DNA of 64,000 nucleotides. It comes from an uncultured Bacteroidota bacterium (GTDB lineage: Bacteria > Bacteroidota > Bacteroidia > Flavobacteriales > Flavobacteriaceae). The position numbers and the translations under genes were made by a program. How positions within the stretch are numbered: the first letter of the stretch is position 1; every line of letters begins with the position of its first letter. Positions 5,635 through 43,100 of the stretch are shown here, one piece after another. The DNA lies in NCBI GenBank assembly GCA_902561795.1, contig CACERG010000003.1, forward strand, positions 13,693 to 77,692, in the 5' to 3' direction. The notes under the pieces are model-generated. The model was not told the origin of the DNA, searched no databases, and saw nothing but the letters and a program-made list of their open reading frames with translations.

Positions 5635-5766
5635 TTAATGACAATCACAATTATGATCACAACCTTTTTTATTTGCTAGCTTGCTTTTAAAAAAAAACTT
5701 TCTGAATAAAAATAGTAGTGCACATATTCCTGACAGAAAAACTAAAAAGCCTTGTATCCAATCCAT
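5635..5766 (-). CDS. FeoB-associated Cys-rich small membrane protein
   Basis: 43 aa: MDWIQGFLVFLSGICALLFLFRKFFFKSKLANKKGCDHNCDCH. One TM helix plus a C-terminal CxxxCxC tail. Its ATG overlaps the feoB stop (TAATG at 5768-5764). The 71-aa version in the ORF track overlaps feoB and is probably too long. Confidence 0.6.
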   Translation of the reverse strand: MDWIQGFLVFLSGICALLFLFRKFFFKSKLANKKGCDHNCDCH

Positions 5767-7856
5767 TATGATAAAATTTGATAAGTTAGAAATGAAATGA
5801 AATAAGCTAATATTGTCATGAAGAATAGCTGGCCCAGTGGCCATTTCCATGAGTTAGTTTCCTTTTTTACAACAGCAAGTGTGCTCATACATTGCATGGC
5901 AAAAGCATAAAAAATCATTAACGAAGTTCCACTTGCTAAATTAAATAATAACTTCCCATCTTTCCTTACTTCTGAAGCCATTTTATTTTTAATAGTATCG
6001 TTATCGTCATTCTGAACACTATATATAGTCGCGAGTGTTCCCACAAAAACTTCTCTTGCAGCAAAGGAGGTGATTATTGCTATTCCAATTCTCCAATCAT
6101 AACCCAATGGGGTTATTATAGGTTCTATTGATCTTCCCAAAACCCCTACATATGAATTCTCTAATTTAAATGAGTTGGTTTTTAATTCTATTTCTTTTTC
6201 TGCAAGCTCAGGATATTTCTTTTGAATAATATTTTCAGCTTGATTAAAATTTTCACCAGGACCATATGAAGCTAAAATCCAAAGTAAAATGGAAATCGCT
6301 AATATTATTTTTCCAGCTCCTTCCACAAAGCTTTTTGTTTTTTCCAATACAGTTAGAGCAACATTTTTAATTAATGGAATCTTATAATTAGGTAATTCAA
6401 TAACAAAGTAGCTCTTTGAATGAATTGATAGGGTAGTAGTTAGGATCCAAGCAATTCCTAGTGCCATAAGAAAACCAATCAAATATAAAAACATTAACAT
6501 CAACCCTTTATAACTAAAGCCGAGAAAGTAACCATCAGGAATTACGAGAGCAATTAGTATTGCATAAACTGGTAAGCGTGCCGAGCATGTAGTAAATGGA
6601 GTAACTAAAATAGTAATTAAGCGCTCTTTCCAAGACTCAATATTTCTTGTTGACATTATTGCTGGTATAGCACAGGCTGTTCCAGAAATTAAAGGGATAA
6701 TACTTTTTCCGCTAAGACCAAAACGACGTAATCCTCTGTCCATTAAAAATACAACCCTACTCATGTAACCTGTTTCTTCGAGTATAGACAAAAAAAGAAA
6801 TAAAAATGCAATCTGAGGAATGAAAATTACTATTCCACCAAGGCCTGGAATAATTCCTTGTGATAAAAGGTCTGTAAACACACCACTTGGTAAATTATTT
6901 GAAGCTACACTGCTCAAATAATTAAAACAATTATCAATAAAATCCATTGGTACTTCACTCCAACTAAAAATAGATTGAAATATTATCATAAGTATTGAAA
7001 AGAAAATTAGATAACCCCAAAACTTGTGAATAAGAACTCTATCTAATTTACTTCTAAAATCAGTTGCAGATGCTTTATCAATTTGTAAACCCTTTTTTAA
7101 AACACTATTAATAAATTGGTAGCGTTTAATCGTTTCCTTTTGTTGAAGACGTTTGATTTCAGATTTAGATTTTGTTTGAAATTTTGAAATATCTGATATA
7201 AGGGTTCTCTGAATTGCTACAAAATTTGCATCCTGTGTTATAATTAACCAAAGTTTGTAAAGTAATTGTCCAGGAAAAGCGTTTTCAAGATTTTCAAAGT
7301 ATTTTTTATCAATAGAATTAATTTGAACAAGCGGTTTATTAGAAATAATCCTGTAGTTCAAAATTAATTTTTTCAATTCATCTAAGCCAGTGTTTTCACG
7401 TGTACTCACGAGGGCAATTTTGGTTTCAAGCGTTTGCTCCAAAATTGGTATATCTAATGAAATACCTTTACGTTTCATTTGATCTGCCATATTAATGACA
7501 AGTATAGTTGGTATTCCCAAGTCTTTAATTTGAGTAAATAGCAACAAGTTTCTTTTTAAGTTTTCAACATCGGCTATTACCAAAGCTAAATCTGGATAAT
7601 CTTTGTTGTTTTTGTTTAGAAGAAGTTCAACAACTATACTTTCATCTATTGATGAAGAATTTATACTGTATGTTCCAGGTAAGTCAATAAAATATCCTTT
7701 TGTTGTCCTATCAAGCTTGCATACTCCCTCTTTTTTTTCAACTGTAACACCTGGATAATTTCCCACCTTTTGAGATAGACCGGTTAGACTATTAAACAGA
7801 GATGTTTTTCCAGTATTTGGGTTTCCCAACAATGCGATATTAAGAGACTTGCTCAT
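5766..7856 (-). CDS. feoB: ferrous iron transporter B
   Basis: 696 aa. N-terminal G-domain with GNPNTGKTSLFN (G1), DLPGTYS (G3) and NMADQ (G4), followed by a polytopic permease domain. Confidence 0.95.
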   Translation of the reverse strand: MSKSLNIALLGNPNTGKTSLFNSLTGLSQKVGNYPGVTVEKKEGVCKLDRTTKGYFIDLPGTYSINSSSIDESIVVELLLNKNNKDYPDLALVIADVENLKRNLLLFTQIKDLGIPTILVINMADQMKRKGISLDIPILEQTLETKIALVSTRENTGLDELKKLILNYRIISNKPLVQINSIDKKYFENLENAFPGQLLYKLWLIITQDANFVAIQRTLISDISKFQTKSKSEIKRLQQKETIKRYQFINSVLKKGLQIDKASATDFRSKLDRVLIHKFWGYLIFFSILMIIFQSIFSWSEVPMDFIDNCFNYLSSVASNNLPSGVFTDLLSQGIIPGLGGIVIFIPQIAFLFLFLSILEETGYMSRVVFLMDRGLRRFGLSGKSIIPLISGTACAIPAIMSTRNIESWKERLITILVTPFTTCSARLPVYAILIALVIPDGYFLGFSYKGLMLMFLYLIGFLMALGIAWILTTTLSIHSKSYFVIELPNYKIPLIKNVALTVLEKTKSFVEGAGKIILAISILLWILASYGPGENFNQAENIIQKKYPELAEKEIELKTNSFKLENSYVGVLGRSIEPIITPLGYDWRIGIAIITSFAAREVFVGTLATIYSVQNDDNDTIKNKMASEVRKDGKLLFNLASGTSLMIFYAFAMQCMSTLAVVKKETNSWKWPLGQLFFMTILAYFISFLTYQILS

Positions 7857-19197: not shown

Positions 19198-19482
19198 ATG
19201 AACAAATATCTTATAAAAAGATCAATTGAAGGGGCTTCGCAGATACCAAGTGAAAAACTCGATGAAATAGGACAAGGATCTGAATCGGTATTGATCGCTA
19301 TGAGAAATGAAGGAAAACAAATAGAACAAGACCATAGTTATATCGCTGGAAACAATGTTTTTTGTGTTTATAACTCAGATTCTGAGGATTTGATAAAAGA
19401 ACATTCTGAACGTGCTGGAGTTCCTGCCAATGAAATTACCTTAATATCAAGTATACTAGAGCATAATACCAATAACGATTAA
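19198..19482 (+). CDS. DUF4242 (SCO4226-like, nickel-binding ferredoxin-fold) protein
   Basis: 94 aa with no signal peptide. The pattern KYLIKRSIEGAS…SEKLDEI…HSYIAGNNVFCVYNSDSEDLIKEHSERAGVPANEIT matches the DUF4242 family layout. Confidence 0.7.
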   Translation: MNKYLIKRSIEGASQIPSEKLDEIGQGSESVLIAMRNEGKQIEQDHSYIAGNNVFCVYNSDSEDLIKEHSERAGVPANEITLISSILEHNTNND

Positions 19483-20871: not shown

Positions 20872-21792
20872 ATGAAAAATATTCTAGAAACGGTTGGCAA
20901 TACACCAATAGTAAAACTTGAGAAAATTATTCCTTCAGGTTGTGGCGAAGTTTATGTAAAACTAGAGGCAAATAATCCAACAGGATCAAAAAAAGATAGA
21001 ATGGCCCTTTCTATGATTGAAGGAGCTGAAAAAAGAGGTGATTTAAAAGAAGGAATGTCTGTTGTTGAGTACTCTGGAGGTAGTACTGGAGCTGGATTAG
21101 CTTTTGTTTGTGCAATTAAAGGATATCGTTTCAGGTTAATTACTGCAGATGTTTTTGGGAAAGAAAAAATTGGCTTAATGAGAGCCTTGGGGGCAGATAT
21201 AGAAGTTATTAAAAGTGAAGATGGAAAAATCACTAAAGAACTTATTGGAAAGATGATTGAAAGGGCTGAAGAAATTTCTGTTGAACCGGATACATTTTTT
21301 ACGGATCAACTTAATAATATGGATGTTATTGAAGGTTTTGTTCCTCTAGGAGATGAGATACTCCAACAACTTGGCGGAAAAGTAGATGCTGTTTGTGACA
21401 CCATTGGAACAGCAGGAACATTAATGGGAATAGCAAAATCATTCAAAAATAATGGGGTTCACTCTAAAGTCATTGCCCTTGAGCCTGCAAGTTCTCCTAT
21501 ATTATCAAAAGGAATTAAAGGCGCTCATAATGTTGAAGGGGTTGGCCTTGGGTTTATTCCTGCTATATATAATTCTGAATATGTTGATGATGTTATTTCA
21601 ATTGAAGAATCCTTAGCAAGACATACTTGCAAGGAACTGGCTTCGAAGGAAGGAATATTTTGTGGTACTTCAAGTGGTATGAATGTAGCAGGTGCAATAA
21701 AATTATCTAAGAGCTTAGGACCAAAATCAAAAGTGGTTGCTGTAGCTTGTGATACAGGACTCAAATATCTTTCTGAAGGACTTTTTTATTAA
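20872..21792 (+). CDS. PLP-dependent cysteine synthase family protein
   Basis: 306 aa. PLP-lysine motif NPTGSKKDR, the SGGSTG loop, and GTAGTLMG, SSG and CDTGLKY blocks typical of the CysK/CysM/CBS fold. Confidence 0.8.
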   Translation: MKNILETVGNTPIVKLEKIIPSGCGEVYVKLEANNPTGSKKDRMALSMIEGAEKRGDLKEGMSVVEYSGGSTGAGLAFVCAIKGYRFRLITADVFGKEKIGLMRALGADIEVIKSEDGKITKELIGKMIERAEEISVEPDTFFTDQLNNMDVIEGFVPLGDEILQQLGGKVDAVCDTIGTAGTLMGIAKSFKNNGVHSKVIALEPASSPILSKGIKGAHNVEGVGLGFIPAIYNSEYVDDVISIEESLARHTCKELASKEGIFCGTSSGMNVAGAIKLSKSLGPKSKVVAVACDTGLKYLSEGLFY

Positions 21793-21831: not shown

Positions 21832-21967
21832 TTTTACAGATTTTATAAATTCCAATTACCTAAACACCAATGTCCAAATTATATATTATAAATCATCGAC
21901 ATATACTCTTCATTGATTTCGGGGAGTAATTTGTATATTGAACATTATTAACCATAAATCAATTAAA
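21832..21967 (+). promoter_or_regulatory. island promoter/5'-leader module, long copy
   Basis: TTTTACAGATTTTATAAATTCC…CCTAAACACCAATGTCCAAATT…CATATACTCTTCATTGATTTCGGGGAGTAATTTGTATATTGAACATTATTAACCATAAATCAATTAAA, followed by the ATG. Confidence 0.6.
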
Positions 21968-22651
21968 ATGAAAAAAATACTATTAATATTTAGTTTATTT
22001 ATTTATTCCATATCCTTTTCACAACAAATATTTTGGTATGATGTTTTTTTAGAAGTGGAATCTAATGCATCTGTTGTTGCTGAACTAGTTGATGAATTTT
22101 ACTCAAATCATCCAAAATCATCTGATGTGAAAGTAGCTTTTTCATCCATACCTTTGAAAGGAGCTAGTGAAAAAGCAACTCACATAATTAGCATAAGTAG
22201 CGAATCATCTAAATCGCTTGCAGATTTTAGAAATTCTTTAAAAGGAAGCAATTGGGACTTATATATATCAAAAATGAGTAATTATATAAAAAGTAATAGG
22301 GCTAACGCTGGTAGAAGCCTAGTGACTAATGGTTCAAATTCCTCATATCCTATTGGTCAAGCATGGGTATTCAAAATTAAAAATAAGGACTTAAATTCAA
22401 CTATTCAAGCTTTTGACAAATTTGTAAAATCAACTGAATTTGATGGATTTGTTGGAATGGGACAAATTGTTCACGGTTCAGAAAACGGTGAAGGGGTATA
22501 TATATATGCTACATACGCTGATTTAAATCAAGCTTTTAATTTCGGCCCACGAAATAAAAAAGAAGGTGCGGCATTTGCAGAAATATTTGCTGCACTTGAT
22601 GTAGCTGAAGATTCAAAAACATTTACTAGAGTTCTTATAAAAAGCTACTAG
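21968..22651 (+). CDS. secreted two-lobed protein of unknown function (island family B-like)
   Basis: 227 aa counted from MKKILLIFSLFIYSISFSQ. No recognised motif. Confidence 0.6.
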   Translation: MKKILLIFSLFIYSISFSQQIFWYDVFLEVESNASVVAELVDEFYSNHPKSSDVKVAFSSIPLKGASEKATHIISISSESSKSLADFRNSLKGSNWDLYISKMSNYIKSNRANAGRSLVTNGSNSSYPIGQAWVFKIKNKDLNSTIQAFDKFVKSTEFDGFVGMGQIVHGSENGEGVYIYATYADLNQAFNFGPRNKKEGAAFAEIFAALDVAEDSKTFTRVLIKSY

Positions 22652-23862: not shown

Positions 23863-23935
23863 ACATATCCTCTTAATTTTAAATTATATGAGACTTATTC
23901 GTATATTACTTACTATTAATCATAAACCAATTAAA
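23863..23935 (+). promoter_or_regulatory. island promoter/5'-leader module copy
   Basis: ACATATCCTCTTAATTTTAAATTATATGAGACTTATTCGTATATTACTTACTATTAATCATAAACCAATTAAA, followed by the ATG. Confidence 0.6.
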
Positions 23936-24421
23936 ATGAAAAATTTATTTATACTCTTATTTATTGCTAGTTCTTTTTACTCTTTAGCTCAAGAAATAAC
24001 TGGAACAGTAAGAACATCTGATAAGTATTCTAATGCAATTAAAAAAATGAATAGTGAATATTTTAAAAATGATTTTACAACATTTAAAAAGATTTTTAGT
24101 GATGATGCAACCTTTAGTGTAAATGGAGAAGAATTTTCAAAAAGTCAAATAATTGAAGGTTTTTCAATGCACCATAAATTTTACTCAAATATTAAGATGC
24201 AGTATAGTTTTGTTGAAACGACTTTTTATGATGAAAATAATAATAATCAAGTATGGAGTCATAATTGGGGACTTTGGGATGGGGTTTCAAAAAGAACTAA
24301 AAAAAATGTGCCCAACCCTGTGAATGTCTCATTTAAATGGGTTGATGGGAAAATTGTCAATGCTTCCTGGATATATGATCCAACACAATTGAATGAAGAA
24401 ATAATGGCCTCTCAAAAATAA
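23936..24421 (+). CDS. secreted NTF2/SnoaL-like protein (island family A)
   Basis: 161 aa counted from MKNLFILLFIASSFYSLAQ. Close paralog of 20268-20747. Confidence 0.65.
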   Translation: MKNLFILLFIASSFYSLAQEITGTVRTSDKYSNAIKKMNSEYFKNDFTTFKKIFSDDATFSVNGEEFSKSQIIEGFSMHHKFYSNIKMQYSFVETTFYDENNNNQVWSHNWGLWDGVSKRTKKNVPNPVNVSFKWVDGKIVNASWIYDPTQLNEEIMASQK

Positions 24422-24551: not shown

Positions 24552-25277
24552 ATGAAAAAAATAGTTAATAGATTTTGGGAGTTTTTAATGTTATTTATTG
24601 CTATTTCACTAGGTTTTTTTGTTGAGAATTATAGGGAAGTGTTAGTCGATAGACAAAAAGAAAAAGAAATAATAGCATCATTTATTAATGACCTTGAAAC
24701 CGACATTAAAGAGTTAGATATTGTAATTCAACGAAGACAAACAAGAGAAGTAAGGATAGATTCAATTATATATATTTTAAATAATGGTTTACAAGATGAT
24801 TATGGAAAAGATCTTTACTATTATGCGAGGTACTTACCTCGCCCTGTGGTGTTTTGGGCAAACAATACAACAAATGAAGAGTTAAAATATTCTGGAAATT
24901 TTATTTTAATAAAAAACCAAAAGATAATTGATACCCTCTTACAATATAACGACAATTTTATTTTCATTGATTTCATAAAAGAAAGGGAGGAATATTTAGT
25001 AAGGAGACTATTTGATCAAATAAATGTGATGTTTGATCCCATGGTTTTCGATGAGATGAATGTTTATGATATAGAATTTGTTTATCCCTCCGGAAATCCA
25101 AAAATAAATACCAAAAATAAGGATGTGATTAACCTTTTTTTAAGCAATTTACACTATGTAAAAACAGTAAATGTAGGACAGCTAGGGCTTTTCAAAAGAC
25201 ATCAAAAAAAAGCAAAAGAAATTTTAAACTTTATAAAGGAAGAATATCCTGATGTGGCAGCTGAAAAACGCAAATAA
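24552..25277 (+). CDS. N-terminally anchored hypothetical protein (paralog of 34451-35185)
   Basis: 241 aa. A single N-terminal TM helix is followed by the motif VENYRE and a helical region. The layout matches the 34451 product (VDNYRE). Confidence 0.55.
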   Translation: MKKIVNRFWEFLMLFIAISLGFFVENYREVLVDRQKEKEIIASFINDLETDIKELDIVIQRRQTREVRIDSIIYILNNGLQDDYGKDLYYYARYLPRPVVFWANNTTNEELKYSGNFILIKNQKIIDTLLQYNDNFIFIDFIKEREEYLVRRLFDQINVMFDPMVFDEMNVYDIEFVYPSGNPKINTKNKDVINLFLSNLHYVKTVNVGQLGLFKRHQKKAKEILNFIKEEYPDVAAEKRK

Positions 25278-25281
25278 CTAT

Positions 25282-25626
25282 CTAACTACCCTCGAAAATA
25301 GAAAGATTTCTTACAACAGTTTCTCCGGGATTATCGCCAAGTTCATTTAAGGCTTCTTGATATTCTTTGCTATTATGACAATTTATAGCGTCTTGTAAAC
25401 TATTAAACTCTACAACTGCTGCAAACATTAAATCTGAACCCTGAATTTTACCTTTAGGCTGACCTGTGAGCACAGGTAAATAGTTTCCAGTTTGTTCATT
25501 TTTATGTTTTTCTTCAATTTGAAAGTATTTTGTTAAGTAGTTATTCCATCTTTCTTCATTTTTAATTTCAATTACATTTCCTATCCAATATCCTTTTTTC
25601 ATTTTATTATGATTTGATTTATTCAT
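25282..25626 (-). CDS. DUF1330-like (dimeric alpha-beta barrel) protein
   Basis: 114 aa. Pattern GYWIGNVIEIKNEERWNNY…AAVVEFNSLQDAINCHNSKEYQEAL resembles DUF1330. Confidence 0.55.
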   Translation of the reverse strand: MNKSNHNKMKKGYWIGNVIEIKNEERWNNYLTKYFQIEEKHKNEQTGNYLPVLTGQPKGKIQGSDLMFAAVVEFNSLQDAINCHNSKEYQEALNELGDNPGETVVRNLSIFEGS

Positions 25627-25782
25627 CTAATATATAGAATGATTTTATGTAAAATAATTTCTTGTATCATCAAATTATATTAATTATTCAGATATAAATA
25701 TTATAAAGCATTTAAGTTTATTTAAGTGCTCCTGCTATCGTTTCATTAAAAATTAATAATTTTATTTATATAAATATTTGAT

Positions 25783-25872
25783 ATGTGTAATTGTGATTGT
25801 TCCCCTTGTAAAGAATTAGATTGTTCAGCATGTATTTGCGAACCCTGTAGTTGTTCTCCTTGTGATTGTTAG
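25783..25872 (+). CDS. 29-aa cysteine-rich peptide, metallothionein-like (unannotated small ORF)
   Basis: An ATG followed by 28 sense codons and a TAG encodes MCNCDCSPCKELDCSACICEPCSCSPCDC. It has 11 Cys in 29 residues, arranged as CxC, CxxC and CxxxxC. It is below the ORF-track length cut-off. Confidence 0.5.
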   Translation: MCNCDCSPCKELDCSACICEPCSCSPCDC

Positions 25873-25896
25873 TTCAACAATAAAAATTCTTGTATT

Positions 25897-26148
25897 TCAT
25901 TTCTTTTTTAATTTTTTGTGTTCAATTATTTCTGGAACCCCTCCCTTGAGATCATCTATCAGAATATGTGGAGTTTGTTTTCGTATCCATTGATAAATCA
26001 CACCCCTTATAAATTCAGTTTGAGTGGGATATTTACCGAATTTGTCTTTTGCCTCGTTTGAAACGATCGCCTGTCTTATATAGTCCACGAATTGCGTTGA
26101 AGCATTAAACTTAATTTGATTACTATATTGAATTTTGGTTTTTGGCAT
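25897..26148 (-). CDS. small putative DNA-binding protein, ribbon-helix-helix-like
   Basis: 83 aa. The N-terminal segment NQIKFNASTQFVDYIRQAI fits a beta-strand plus helix, followed by a second helix (TQTEFIRGVIYQWIRK) and a basic tail. A perfect palindrome lies 34 nt upstream. Confidence 0.45.
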   Translation of the reverse strand: MPKTKIQYSNQIKFNASTQFVDYIRQAIVSNEAKDKFGKYPTQTEFIRGVIYQWIRKQTPHILIDDLKGGVPEIIEHKKLKKK

Positions 26149-26181
26149 CAGAATAACTTTTTGTCAATAAAATTTTTACAG

Positions 26182-26198
26182 GTACCTTTCAAAGGTAC
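26182..26198. promoter_or_regulatory. perfect 8-1-8 palindrome, candidate operator
   Basis: GTACCTTT-C-AAAGGTAC lies upstream of the minus-strand 83-aa gene. An extra half-site-like GTACCT occurs near 26236. Confidence 0.4.
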
Positions 26199-26403
26199 TT
26201 ATATTATTGAAAAAAAAAATATATAAAGTCTTTTTGATGTTTTTTGTACCTAAAAATACCTCTAGCATATTATTTAAAAAGTAAAATTGTTATTTTTTCC
26301 ATATTTATTAATAAAAAATCCAAATTTTTAGCTATTTTATGAGATTTTTAGAAGAAAAGTGCAAGTTTTTACGAATTTTTTAACTTGTTTCATTAATTTC
26401 TGC

Positions 26404-26462
26404 TTCATTTAATTTTAAAAAACATATTTGTATCTTAAAGTTTCAATCATAAATCAATTAAT
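26404..26462 (+). promoter_or_regulatory. island promoter/5'-leader module copy (diverged)
   Basis: TTCATTTAATTTTAAAAAACATATTTGTATCTTAAAGTTTCAATCATAAATCAATTAAT, followed by the ATG. Confidence 0.45.
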
Positions 26463-27236
26463 ATGAAAAATTTAATTTTTGTAGTTATACTCTTTACATC
26501 AATATTTATTCATGCTCAAACAACAGTAATGATTGCTGTTGTGCTTGAAGATGGTAAAGAAAATGAATATCTCCAGTATGAAAAAAACTGGAATAAAGTT
26601 GCTGACCAAATGGTAAAAGATAATTTGATTGCTCAATGGTCAGTGTGGAAAAGAACTCCTAGAGATGGAGACGAAAATTGGGCACAATATTATGTTTTTA
26701 GAAGAACAACAAAGGAGCAGGACGAGAATCTTGATACAAATGCTTGGAAAAAGTCAACTAAAACTGCATTTAAGGGTAAAAGTCAAAAGACAATAGATAA
26801 ATTACTGTCCTCTAGCGGAATAGTTAAAGAAAACAGAAGTAGAACCTACAAATGGGTATCTGGTACTGGATGGAGAGGATTAGAATGGGAAATAGGTGAT
26901 AAGGGCTATTTTCATTTTATGAAACAAAATAATGATGATTTTGAAGATTATGAAAGATCAGTTTGGAAACCTATAGCTCAGCAACAAATTCTTGACGGTT
27001 ACAGAAAATTTTGGGGTCTTGCCAAAATCATATCAAAAAATGATTACACAAAAAAATTAGAGTCAGGTTTCACCCATATTGCATTTAATTTTATGACAAA
27101 AAAGGAAATGCCACAGGGCACAGAGTACAATATAATAGAGGACGAATTTTTAAGGGAAAAGGCTTTTGAGGGACTTCAAGCATCAAGGGAAATGCTACCT
27201 TCCGAAGAACTCACTTTAGTATATTCAACTTTTTAA
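26463..27236 (+). CDS. secreted two-lobed protein of unknown function (island family B)
   Basis: 257 aa with signal peptide …FIHAQ. It shares its layout and scattered motifs (W.K.A……W.…KR) with 28126-28896. Confidence 0.65.
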   Translation: MKNLIFVVILFTSIFIHAQTTVMIAVVLEDGKENEYLQYEKNWNKVADQMVKDNLIAQWSVWKRTPRDGDENWAQYYVFRRTTKEQDENLDTNAWKKSTKTAFKGKSQKTIDKLLSSSGIVKENRSRTYKWVSGTGWRGLEWEIGDKGYFHFMKQNNDDFEDYERSVWKPIAQQQILDGYRKFWGLAKIISKNDYTKKLESGFTHIAFNFMTKKEMPQGTEYNIIEDEFLREKAFEGLQASREMLPSEELTLVYSTF

Positions 27237-27299: not shown

Positions 27300-27347
27300 C
27301 AATTTCATGCACTTCTTTGTATATTGATGGATCTTAATTTTATTTTT
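27300..27347 (+). promoter_or_regulatory. island promoter module copy (core only)
   Basis: The core CTTTGTATATTG at 27315-27326 is 21 nt upstream of the ATG. The leader has diverged. Confidence 0.4.
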
Positions 27348-27860
27348 ATGAAAACAAACATCTTATTTATTGCAACAATTGTATCAATACTTTTTTTAGC
27401 TTGTAACTCTCAACAAAATAGTACTCCCCAAAAAGCAGAAAATCAAATAGGTATAATTAAAGGAAATGATTTTCGCTCCAGTGCGATGATTACATTTATG
27501 GATGCTTATGTTAATAACAACCTAAGTAGCGTTGCTGATTTATTTACTCCTGATGCGAAAATAATGATAAATGATGCTGATTTAACCTTTTCCCAAATGG
27601 CAGAAGGATTTTCAGCAGGTCATCAATATTTTGAAAATATTCGCCACGAAAATAGAGATGCTTTTACTATGCATTACGAAGATGGTAAACCGGCAGGAAA
27701 TATTTTTACACATTGCTGGTATACTTGGAAAGCAACAAGTAAAAAAACAGGTGAAGAACTTTCAATAAGAGGCTATGCTTGGATGAAATGGAAAGATGAT
27801 AAGGTTGAAACAGTTTATAATGCATTTGATCCTACCATGTATAACGCTTCTATGAATTAA
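27348..27860 (+). CDS. NTF2/SnoaL-like lipoprotein (island family A, distant member)
   Basis: 170 aa counted from MKTNILFIATIVSILFLAC (lipobox). It shares motifs F.DAYV.N, GF…H.YF.NI, H.WY.WKA.SKKT, KWKDDKV and DPT with 20268 and 23936. Confidence 0.6.
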   Translation: MKTNILFIATIVSILFLACNSQQNSTPQKAENQIGIIKGNDFRSSAMITFMDAYVNNNLSSVADLFTPDAKIMINDADLTFSQMAEGFSAGHQYFENIRHENRDAFTMHYEDGKPAGNIFTHCWYTWKATSKKTGEELSIRGYAWMKWKDDKVETVYNAFDPTMYNASMN

Positions 27861-28125: not shown

Positions 28126-28896
28126 ATGAAAACATTTAATAAACTTATATTAACTTTTCTTTTAATGTTTGCTGTAAATATTTCAGCACAAGGAGTATTT
28201 TATTTACATGGAGTTCGTGTTCCTTACAAATTTCAAGAAAATTTTGAAAGCAATCAAAAGCAATATTTTTCTAAACTAGCTCAAGATTATGTCAATTCTG
28301 GTAAAATGCAAGGCTGGGCTTTATTAAAAAGGGTATCACGTGTAGGTGATTCAGAAGATTATAAATTTAATTATTTTTGGGTTCACGGTTTTGAGAGTAT
28401 TGATCAAATGATTTCAGCACAAGCGGATCCATTTTGGAATAAATTTGAAAGCAAATTTAAAAAGAAGCCAAGTGAATTATTAAAAGAATCTCGATCTATA
28501 AAAAGTGGCACTTATTATTTTAAAACGTATGATCAGTTTAGTACAGGTCAAGGTAAATATGTGATATTAAATGATGGAAAGGTGAAGGATATACAAATGG
28601 CTTTAGATATGGGAAAACAAACTGGTAAAATTTTTAAAAAGAATTCGAAAAAATCTGGAATGAAAGGATGGGGAGTTGCTACAGTCATTGCACCTCAGGA
28701 TAAACATAATACAAGTAATGTATTTTATTGGGACATATATGACACATTAGCAAATGCAATGAAACATATGGCAGGGGAAGCCGCTATATTAGACATACCT
28801 GATGAAATGGCAGGTAAATTTTATGAAAATCTTCCAGATGGTTTCTCACACAGGAATATAACAGAAATTATTATTGGCACTACTCCTAAAGAGTAA
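28126..28896 (+). CDS. secreted two-lobed protein of unknown function (island family B)
   Basis: 256 aa with signal peptide …NISAQ. Similar to 26463-27236. Confidence 0.65.
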   Translation: MKTFNKLILTFLLMFAVNISAQGVFYLHGVRVPYKFQENFESNQKQYFSKLAQDYVNSGKMQGWALLKRVSRVGDSEDYKFNYFWVHGFESIDQMISAQADPFWNKFESKFKKKPSELLKESRSIKSGTYYFKTYDQFSTGQGKYVILNDGKVKDIQMALDMGKQTGKIFKKNSKKSGMKGWGVATVIAPQDKHNTSNVFYWDIYDTLANAMKHMAGEAAILDIPDEMAGKFYENLPDGFSHRNITEIIIGTTPKE

Positions 28897-40100: not shown

Positions 40101-43100
40101 CTCCCCATCAGTTTGGACTTTTGTATTTGACTTTCCATCATACTCTCTTCCAAGTGGAATTTATACCCTTACAGTAAGTGGTACTGATATTTCAGGCAAC
40201 CCATATTCAGTGAGTGAAGATGTTGAATTGGATTACCAGTTAACTGCACCAACTTTAACTTTAACAGATCAAACACTTGTCTATGTACTGGATCAGACTT
40301 TCACTCTTACAGCTACTTCAAGTAGTTCGGGAGCTTTATCTTTTAGTATTGCAAGCCCATCGGTCGCAACAGTCAGTGGTTCTACGGGAACTATTAAAGC
40401 AGCAGGCTCAACAATTATAACAGTAAACCAAGCAGCATCTGGTAATTATGCAGCGGCAACAGCAACAGCAACCCTATTAATTAATAAAGCCGTTGCCTCT
40501 ATAACCAGTTCAAATGTTCTAACAAAAATATATGGAGATCCTGTATTTCCTCTAACAGCCACATCAAGTAGTACTGGAAGTTTTTCATACCAAGTCTTAG
40601 ATCCTAATATAGCAGTACGTGTAGGTTCTAATGTGGTATCAATTACAGGTGTTGGAACAACAACAATTGTAATTACCCAGGCAGAAGACTCAAATTTCTC
40701 AACCACAAGTAAAACAATAACTCTTTTTGTTGATACAGCAGTGCCTGAAATACAAAACAACCTTATTATAACCAAGATTTTTAATGACACTTTTCCAGTT
40801 TCCGATATTTCAGCAACCTCGAGCAGCACAGGACTATTTTCTTATACTGTTTCGGACTCTTTAATAGCAAGTGTTTCAAGTAGTACGATTGTTACTACTG
40901 GGGTAGGAACGACAACAATATTTATAACCCAATCAGCCGATGGTTTCTATAAGTCAGCTACATCATCGGTAACTTTAATTGTAAATAAGGCAATTCCTAT
41001 AATAACTTTTCAAGACAAAACTGTTACCTACGATAATAGTAGAGTTTTTGGTATTTCTGCAACTTCAAGTAGTACAGGTAGTTTTACCTATTCAATAGCA
41101 GATGTAAGTGTTGCAAGAGAATCTACACAATCACAAACAGGAACGACCATTCCTGGGTTCAACAAATCTTCAGTTAGAAGCAATATAATTAGCCAAACAT
41201 TTTCGTTCAAAACACGCAAATCTGGTGAAACTGAAATTACCGTAGTTCAAGATGAAGACAATAATTATTTATCTGCATCTGCTACCATGACTCTTAAAGT
41301 ACTTAAGAAAGATATAGGAGGTGATTGGTATCCACCTACCTCCATATTTACAAGGGATTATGGTATACTTCCTTTTCAAGTAGTCCAACCAACTGTTGAA
41401 CTAGATTACTCAGGTACATTTAATTATAGATCTGCAGATCCAAGTATTGCGAGTTTCTCTACATCAACAATTACTATTAGTAGCACTGGAACAGTTACCC
41501 TTTTTGCAGATATATTAGGGGATGATAAATATAATGCTAGGACTGTAACTGCTACCCTTATAGTTGAAAAATCAAATCAATCAATAATTGTTGAACCATT
41601 ACCAATAGAAAAGCCTTTAAAAGATTTCACATCTCTTACAGTATCTGCAACATCGACATCTGGCGATCAAGTAATAGTTTCACTTGTAAGTGGATCTGCA
41701 GCAAATCTCTCGGGTTCTGTAGGCAACTATTTATTAAATAATATTAATCAGACAGGACTAGTAACGATTACCTTTACAGTTCCTGAAAGTCAAAATTATT
41801 ACTCTGCAACAGTGACTGCTGTAATTGATGTTATAAAAACTAATCAATCCATTACTGTAAGCCCAGTAACACCTACTTTTATATATTATCAGGAAAATTT
41901 AGTTTACACTATAAATGCATTTTCGGACTCGACACTAGATTTAACCTACACATTAGTATCAGGTACTAATGCGACACTGTCCGGAAATGTATTAAATATT
42001 TCAGATATAGGTGAACTAGTTGTAGAGATTAACCAACCAGGGGACAATATTTTTAATCCTGCAATTACGAAAAGAGAGGTTATAAAAGTTGTTCAAGGAA
42101 TAACCAATTTAAGTAATTTTAATATACCTGATAAGTATGTTGATGATGATAATTTTGTAATTCCAACACCTACCTCAAACAGATCAGGAAATTACACTCA
42201 CAGATCGTCTAATATTACTATAGCAGATATTATTTATTCTAGACCTGAAGAAATCGAAATTATGGGCATTCCTGGTGTTAGTACAATAACAGCAATACAA
42301 CAGGCAACCCCACAATTTAGTGAAGGATCTATAGATGCACCATTTAAAGTCATTGACTATGATTGTGATGGTGATGGGACAACAAATTTTTATGATGATG
42401 ACGATGACAACGATGGCTATCTTGATGTTGATGATGCCTTTCCATGTGATCCTACTAAATTTGAAGATTCCGATCTGGATGAAGATGGCATACCAGACTT
42501 ACAAGACAACTGCCCTTCTACACCCAATCCAAAACAGGAGGACGCAGATGGTGATGGGGTAGGTGATGCTTGCGATAATTGTCTGTCAGAGGCTAATCCT
42601 AACCAAGAAGATACTGACTCAGATGGAATAGGTGATGCATGTGACAACTGTCTTTCAGAGGCTAATCTTAATCAAGAAGATACTGATGGCGATGGTATAG
42701 GCGATGCATGTGATAATTGTCTGTCAGAGGCTAATCCTAATCAAGAAGATACTGACGGGGACGGTGTAGGTGATGCATGTGATAATTGCCTCTCAGAGGC
42801 TAATCCTAATCAAGAAGATACTGACGGGGACGGTGTAGGTGATGCATGTGATAATTGCCTCTCAGAGGCTAATCCTTACCAAGAAGATACTGATGGCGAT
42901 GGAAAAGGTGATGCATGTGATAACAATCCACTTCCTGATCCTGGTCCTGATGATGGAGAAATTAAAATTTCTGAGTTTGTTTCACCTAATGGTGACGGTA
43001 TAAATGACTTTTTTGTGATCCAAAACATTGAAAATCACCCAAATAATGAGCTTGTAATATATACCCGATCAGGAGTAGTAATTTTCTCTACAAGAAACTA

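Follow-up and report, generated by a model that had tools for sequence, protein, structure and literature searches.

Among known small cysteine-rich proteins, the alpha-domain of vertebrate metallothioneins contains 11 Cys and binds four divalent ions, and small copper metallothioneins are also known from fungi. The SmtA/BmtA proteins are about 55 aa long, use His ligands, adopt a zinc-finger-like fold and are controlled by ArsR/SmtB repressors. The Cys11 peptides described here, one of which is encoded in the window (i.e., the whole 64-kb stretch of DNA analysed), resemble metallothioneins in that they are tiny, consist of about 35% Cys arranged as CxC and CxxC with 11 Cys in about 28 residues, and contain virtually no aromatic residues or His. 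Unlike metallothioneins, they show no homology detectable in Pfam or the PDB, follow a rigid Cys skeleton of their own and also occur as a domain of phage proteases. Like SmtA/BmtA and the mycobacterial MymT, they are small Cys-rich prokaryotic proteins apparently tied to a metal-responsive regulator. They differ from SmtA/BmtA by their length (29-37 aa), the absence of His, the lack of a PF02069 match and the linkage of the relatives of the window copy to an ECF sigma factor.

The ECF238 group of sigma factors comprises SigZ and the Cd/Zn-activated CorE2, which carry a short Cys-rich C-terminal extension and have no anti-sigma factor; in the SigZ/CorE group, metals are sensed through such Cys-rich tails (PMC7826278). 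A CxC motif in the linker is a further requirement of CorE-type factors (PMC4937300, PMC6851896). A small Cys-rich partner gene is not mentioned in any of these three papers (PMC7826278, PMC6851896, PMC4937300). The sigma factor encoded next to most Cys11 genes resembles CorE, CorE2 and SigZ: its best NCBIfam matches are the SigZ models, it ends in a short Cys-rich tail, and its operon is preceded by what appears to be an ECF-type promoter. Unlike the CorE-type factors, it lacks the linker CxC, its scores stay below the SigZ equivalog cut-offs, and the window encodes no such protein. Finally, the polycysteine leaderless short ORFs of mycobacteria contain consecutive Cys tracts that stall ribosomes upstream of Cys-metabolism genes, the peptide itself being irrelevant (bioRxiv 10.1101/834739). 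The Cys11 genes share with these ORFs the fact of being short, Cys-rich and unannotated and, in canonical loci, of lying upstream of a gene with an RNA structure in between. Unlike them, they maintain their Cys spacing and other residues, they serve as protein domains, and the window copy has no gene downstream.

The Cys11 open reading frame and its coding signature

The features of the window to which we refer are the following.

25783..25872, plus strand: ORF of the Cys11 mini-protein MCNCDCSPCKELDCSACICEPCSCSPCDC, TAG included (sequence, conservation and substitution pattern)
25719..25782, plus strand: upstream part of the cassette, 64 nt, presumed promoter and translation start region (extent of the similarity to locus L362)
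25873..25905, plus strand: downstream part of the cassette, 33 nt, overlapping the 3' end of the convergent 83-aa gene (extent of the similarity to locus L362)
25282-25626, minus strand: DUF1330 protein gene, diverging from the Cys11 ORF
25897-26148, minus strand: 83-aa protein gene, converging on the Cys11 ORF, without Pfam or NCBIfam match
19198-19482: DUF4242/SCO4226-like gene (PF14026)
20872-21792: PALP enzyme gene
5766-7856: FeoB gene

The ORF occupies part of the 270-nt spacer that separates two minus-strand genes and consists of an ATG at 25783, 28 further sense codons and a TAG at 25870-25872. Eleven of the 29 residues of MCNCDCSPCKELDCSACICEPCSCSPCDC are Cys (38%), spaced as CxC, CxxC and Cx4C, and Phe, Tyr, Trp and His are all absent; the first Cys immediately follows Met and the stop codon immediately follows the eleventh. 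The initial annotation had reported such an ORF, free of aromatic residues and His, and had judged its run of Cys codons unlikely to arise by chance; the window sequence bears out both statements. At a GC content of 32%, Cys codons represent 2.9% of sense triplets in the window, and Cys accounts for 0.9% of the residues of its long ORFs. The probability of finding at least 11 Cys in 28 codons is 1.6e-10, or about 2e-5 expected occurrences over all six frames, which rules out a chance ORF. The Cys-skeleton pattern has a single match in the window and none in 100 shuffles, and the runner-up in Cys content among the 248 ATG-initiated ORFs of at least 25 aa in the window has 6 Cys per 29 aa. A 21-aa reading at 40399-40473 on the minus strand, opposite a 1929-aa ORF, was considered as a second Cys-rich gene and rejected as a repeat-driven artefact of the antisense frame. 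An Rfam scan of positions 25000-27000 returned nothing over the ORF, and a scan for sigma-70 promoters and terminators returned nothing tied to it, with no terminator-like site in 25873..25905.

The peptide is identical in ten loci that carry the exact 83-aa neighbour. Across 10 close relatives, the 90 nt of the ORF contain a single variable site, a synonymous TCC>TCT change, compared with 23 variable columns in the 156-nt upstream spacer, 4 variable sites in the 24 nt downstream and 16 in the 345 nt of the DUF1330 gene. Of the ten loci, three (L002, L003 and L009) had the 29-aa ORF predicted by gene callers. A six-frame Cys scan of contigs encoding a 68%-identical homologue of the 83-aa protein yielded a diverged orthologue, MCNCECVPCLEDNCVACICEPCSCSSCDC, which has the same length and stop as the window peptide within different flanks. 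Compared with MCNCDCSPCKELDCSACICEPCSCSPCDC, it exhibits nine synonymous codon changes, among them an AGT/TCT Ser exchange and two TGT>TGC changes, and seven non-synonymous ones, none of which affects a Cys.

A metagenome scan for the window subtype detected 23 marine contigs encoding 17 distinct 29-aa variants. Since the scan pattern fixed the Cys and two Pro codons, the absence of non-synonymous changes at Cys is partly imposed. Over the 23 unique DNA sequences, 12, 11 and 27 of the 29 columns vary at codon positions 1, 2 and 3, respectively, the median pairwise dN/dS is 0.14, and the non-Cys codons taken separately give a pS of 0.56 and a pN of 0.29. This coding substitution pattern rules out a non-coding antisense element and shows the gene to be under purifying selection. 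The search for the Cys pattern in relatives and the check for purifying selection, both proposed with the initial annotation, thus came out in its favour: the frame is conserved through 17 variants at a dN/dS of 0.14, and the view that this is a genuine gene for a small Cys-rich protein is upheld by conservation and substitution pattern alike. We regard the window ORF as almost certainly a real, translated gene.

The limits of the conserved unit are indicated by locus L362, which shares with the window only positions 25719-25905 (188 nt, 93.6% identity) between unrelated flanks. With similarity confined to this segment, the conserved unit is a self-contained cassette of about 190 nt. An upstream TATTTG-containing element, pointed out by the initial annotation, is not conserved, position 25778 being a T/A polymorphism among close relatives.

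The Cys11 family and its canonical operon

Members of the family were sought with a DNA pattern of 11 TGY codons at their proper spacing, which imposes neither start nor stop. Early matches in viral contigs proved to be TGY microsatellites and were removed by disallowing G as the middle base of three spacer codons. The resulting skeleton, CxCxCxxCx4CxxCxCxxCxCxxCxC, admits no indels, and the window peptide conforms to it. It was found in at least 105 small ORFs from at least 105 species-level genomes, nearly all of them Flavobacteriaceae, including Polaribacter, Winogradskyella, Tenacibaculum, Gelidibacter, Kordia, Olleya, Lacinutrix and Aquimarina, with a few Saprospiraceae. MKNKECTCNCDGCKTGNCKNCTCENCTCNNCNC is an example of the canonical form. 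Among the matches listed, the last Cys is the final residue in 73 of 78 canonical members, and each of the 78 has a Met 4-7 codons before the first Cys. The window ORF fits the definition of a standalone member, with a Met 0-8 codons before the first Cys and a stop at most 2 codons after the last. Aligning 71 members leaves the 11 Cys as the sole invariant residues, and canonical members further conserve Gly11 (96%), Thr17 (87%), Asn27 (87%) and Asn20 (77%). The Cys content is 33-38% over the window peptide and the canonical members, and Phe, Tyr, Trp and His each remain below 0.5% in the 78 canonical members. Two further occurrences lie outside the Bacteroidota, where the skeleton is embedded in Lys-rich multi-module ORFs: one of 152 aa on a Methanobacteriaceae contig (L312, 4755-4839) and one of at least 88 aa on a contig of the Cyanobacteria UBA791 (L296). 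The Cys module is therefore not limited to Flavobacteriia and phages.

This large family, whose members come from over 100 species of marine Flavobacteriaceae as well as from phages, is essentially unannotated. Pfam gave no match at E<=1 for the window peptide and none at E<=0.01 for the canonical form, NCBIfam matched neither of them, PHROGs does not represent the family, and a profile search of PDB sequences returned 0 matches at E<=10. A profile of the 71 members obtained 3 weak matches among 5.8 billion clusters, and 21 family peptides were found among 1.84 billion protein representatives. A protein search with the doubled peptide had no matches, and the exact peptide was absent upon look-up, as was any record of the exact DUF1330 neighbour. 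A tblastn search of cultured phages also returned no match, for which the low-complexity filter is probably responsible. In the literature, we found no description of a flavobacterial or phage metallothionein, of a Cys-rich partner of SigZ or CorE, or of DUF3703 (see below).

In 78 of the 95 assessable cellular loci among the matches listed, the peptide gene is followed on the same strand by a gene encoding a SigZ-like (ECF238-type) ECF sigma factor of about 179 aa, which starts at a median of 77 nt past the peptide gene; the pair also occurs in Saprospiraceae. Across 77 sequences, this sigma factor has five invariant Cys, namely one in the linker, a CC pair after the sigma-4 region and a terminal CxxC. 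The single linker Cys lies in the motif H-T-E-x-D-C, the CxC of the CorE linker being absent, so that of the two hallmarks of CorE-like (ECF44) factors the flavobacterial protein exhibits the Cys-rich C-terminal domain but not the linker motif. The motif TGC[AG]TC-N17-GTCT (TGCATC-N16-CGTC) was found about 27 nt before the ATG of the peptide gene in 73 of 77 loci, with an invariant spacer, and its architecture marks it as a predicted ECF-type promoter. Spacers between the two genes contain a strong terminator-like hairpin in 62 of 65 cases, and a T-run frequently comes after it.

A second copy of the same motif, about 440 nt upstream of the peptide start, precedes an adjacent DUF3703 gene (PF12487) in nine loci (L239, L253, L281, L286, L295, L307, L332, L335 and L337). 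The shared motif suggests that DUF3703 belongs to the same small regulon.

The window subtype and the phage members

The window copy is an orphan subtype devoid of the canonical sigma gene and promoter, the canonical form being defined by the ECF-type motif in front of the peptide gene and a SigZ-like sigma gene about 50-95 nt behind it. No SigZ-like gene was detected by tblastn in the 64-kb window, and the motif TGC[AG]TC-N17-GTCT is absent from the window and from every window-subtype locus. Neighbours of the subtype vary with the lineage and include the 83-aa gene, a DUF411 (CopG family) gene adjoining the peptide gene in one lineage, a 70-aa ORF, a gene for a large cytochrome-c-domain protein and a DUF2237 gene. 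Numerous marine contigs contain the exact 83-aa neighbour, as does 'Bacteroidetes bacterium SCGC AAA795-G10'. The initial annotation was right that the ORF converges on a small gene, namely this one, but the proposed RHH-like nature of its product finds no counterpart in Pfam or NCBIfam. The metal- or thiol-related genes that it had listed as nearby (DUF4242, PALP, FeoB) are real; at a distance of 4-20 kb and without conservation as neighbours, they do not sustain the argument drawn from them.

Several other features of these surroundings deserve mention. Homologues of the 83-aa gene with 52-60% identity directly precede an HK97-type major capsid gene (PF05065) in L016-L020 (3001-3339) and L025 (3001-3327), and the 83-aa family may consequently derive from a phage or other mobile element. 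Another homologue lies 1.6-2.9 kb from the peptide gene in the L011/L015 lineage. A gene for the Cys-containing DUF2237 (PF09996) adjoins the peptide gene in two subtypes and contexts (L268, -519..-156 relative to the peptide; L011, 4174-4545; L015, 1852-2223), an adjacency that could reflect either coincidence or a functional link. In L359, L360 and L363, the 70-aa ORF, which ends in SQKSCGCC and has no Pfam match, lies about 44 nt downstream of a near-identical peptide copy on the same strand. The window also encodes, around the peptide, paralogous predicted secreted proteins of 237, 257 and 256 aa (21938-22651, 26463-27236 and 28126-28896) and two SnoaL-like proteins (23888-24421 and 27324-27860). 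The relatives L001-L010, although otherwise close, differ in their gene content here, suggesting that this part of the genome is variable.

About 33 clean instances of the skeleton were found in viral contigs; some are ORFs of 30-50 aa by themselves, others are attached behind prohead proteases in fusion proteins. One such protease, confirmed with Pfam, is of the ClpP type and is itself encoded behind a portal gene; reading of the sequences adds fusions to S49-like and HK97-like proteases and to another conserved N-terminal domain. These contigs have GC contents between 0.29 and 0.62, and a SigZ-like sigma factor is encoded on none of them. Repeated fusion to other proteins indicates that the module is an autonomously folding domain. 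Many phage-type members (P0045, P0052, P0053, P0062 and P0063; L151, L206 and L226) have a conserved F-x-x-W-L-E/x-K lead-in before the Cys module, possibly a short docking helix.

A predicted metal-thiolate protein and alternative readings

By composition the peptide is metallothionein-like, yet at the sequence level it falls outside every known metallothionein family. The metallothionein-type assignment of the initial annotation thus stands as far as the composition is concerned (38% Cys, CxC and CxxC motifs, no aromatic residues or His) but not in terms of descent, there being no homology to eukaryotic or other metallothioneins and no match in Pfam, NCBIfam or the PDB. The 11 invariant Cys would fold around a metal-thiolate cluster of Zn, Cd or Cu(I), and the peptide probably binds metal. 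A metal or thiol link agrees with the Cys-tailed sigma factor and the shared motif of most relatives and with the DUF411 (CopG family) gene beside one subtype lineage; against it stand the varying neighbours of the window subtype and the missing linker CxC, by which the proven metal-sensing CorE type is defined. An AlphaFold2 model computed from a 4-sequence alignment and without metal reached a pLDDT of 59, too low to inform on the fold. The small protein would sequester or buffer metal in the cytoplasm, although for the buffering role itself the chances are about evenly poised.

In the canonical operon, the peptide gene would be the first and main output of the predicted ECF-type promoter. 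The Cys-tailed, SigZ-like product of the next gene is presumably the sigma factor that recognises this promoter, and leaky read-through past the hairpin into its gene would close a sense-and-sequester loop. The window copy is a self-contained unit of about 190 nt, presumably with a promoter of its own, and is not coupled to the sigma factor; since neither a SigZ-like gene nor the ECF motif is found there, the sigma-based regulatory argument reaches the window only by homology. Taken as a whole, namely a 29-aa metallothionein-like protein that sequesters or buffers metal, a sense-and-sequester loop in the relatives and an orphan copy in the window, we give this reading a little more than an even chance. 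The broader proposal is that these peptides form a widespread family of metal-cluster mini-proteins and that, in Flavobacteriaceae, a SigZ/ECF238 sigma factor sensing metals or redox state has the peptide as its dedicated output and for feedback; it is made tentatively and may well not hold.

Conservation of the peptide-sigma pair in 78 of the 95 assessable loci among the matches listed, Saprospiraceae included, would also be expected if the peptide were a partner of the sigma factor itself, i.e., a tiny Cys-rich anti-sigma factor, a redox sensor or a metal donor or acceptor, with the window copy acting in trans. As a rule, the regulator of an ECF factor is encoded in the same operon, no anti-sigma factor is known for ECF238 (PMC7826278), and the two Cys-rich proteins could share or exchange metal. 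Such a partnership nevertheless appears unlikely: the peptide occurs without the sigma factor in 17 assessable cellular loci among the matches listed, in all window-subtype loci and in all phage loci, a strong hairpin separates the two genes, the module is also a domain within unrelated phage proteins, and the 64-kb window encodes no such sigma factor. With the module being a domain of phage head-maturation proteases, a structural metal-knot role is conceivable beside that of a sigma partner, and the protease fusions fit a structural role better than detoxification. A metal-knot of phage origin, involved in capsid assembly or host takeover, would leave the window copy as a domesticated form or a remnant without a role in metal homeostasis. 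The roughly 33 viral instances, standalone or behind three types of prohead protease over a GC range of 0.29 to 0.62, the location of the adjacent 83-aa family beside HK97-type capsid genes in distant relatives and the movement of the cassette between contexts all speak for this origin. We nonetheless consider it quite improbable, as the window copy has no phage genes around it, the gene is kept in a stable chromosomal operon with a host-type sigma factor and promoter in over 100 cellular species, and purifying selection acts across a diverse marine clade.

The canonical order of promoter, Cys-rich short ORF, strong hairpin and gene recalls a Cys-sensing leader, in which ribosomes pausing at Cys codons would gate the hairpin and the gene beyond it, as mycobacterial Cys-rich short ORFs act as attenuators (bioRxiv 10.1101/834739). 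For the window copy, this reading is largely refuted: no co-directional gene follows and the next gene converges, in agreement with the initial annotation, which had already called it weak. For the family it is very hard to sustain, given that more than 100 species maintain the exact Cys spacing together with the Gly, Thr and Asn residues, that larger proteins contain the module as a fused part, that Cys codons are never consecutive, and that the gated gene would encode a sigma factor rather than a function of Cys metabolism. A Cys-rich RiPP precursor of the SCIFF/ranthipeptide kind would match the peptide in size and Cys content and is equally hard to reconcile with the loci: among the conserved neighbours in at least 105 genomic and 28 subtype loci there is no radical-SAM or other maturase, protease or exporter, no NCBIfam precursor model matches, and there is no leader/core organisation, the window peptide beginning with Met-Cys. 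We consider it very improbable.

Whatever its function, a gene of more than 100 abundant marine Flavobacteriaceae species is nearly missing from protein databases, which shows the extent of the small-protein biology missed by automated annotation. That the module was joined repeatedly to the proteases of phage head maturation suggests that capsid assembly involves a metal-dependent element hitherto overlooked. For sigma factors of the SigZ type, about whose signal and regulon little is known, the loci provide a conserved promoter motif and a conserved target. If the metallothionein-like reading is true, the Cys11 proteins would be the first metallothionein-type family of the Bacteroidota and the first carried by phages, and the SigZ/ECF238 group would gain a defined target and a testable signal. 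If they bind metal, they would constitute a trace-metal buffering component in organisms that dominate the degradation of marine algal blooms.
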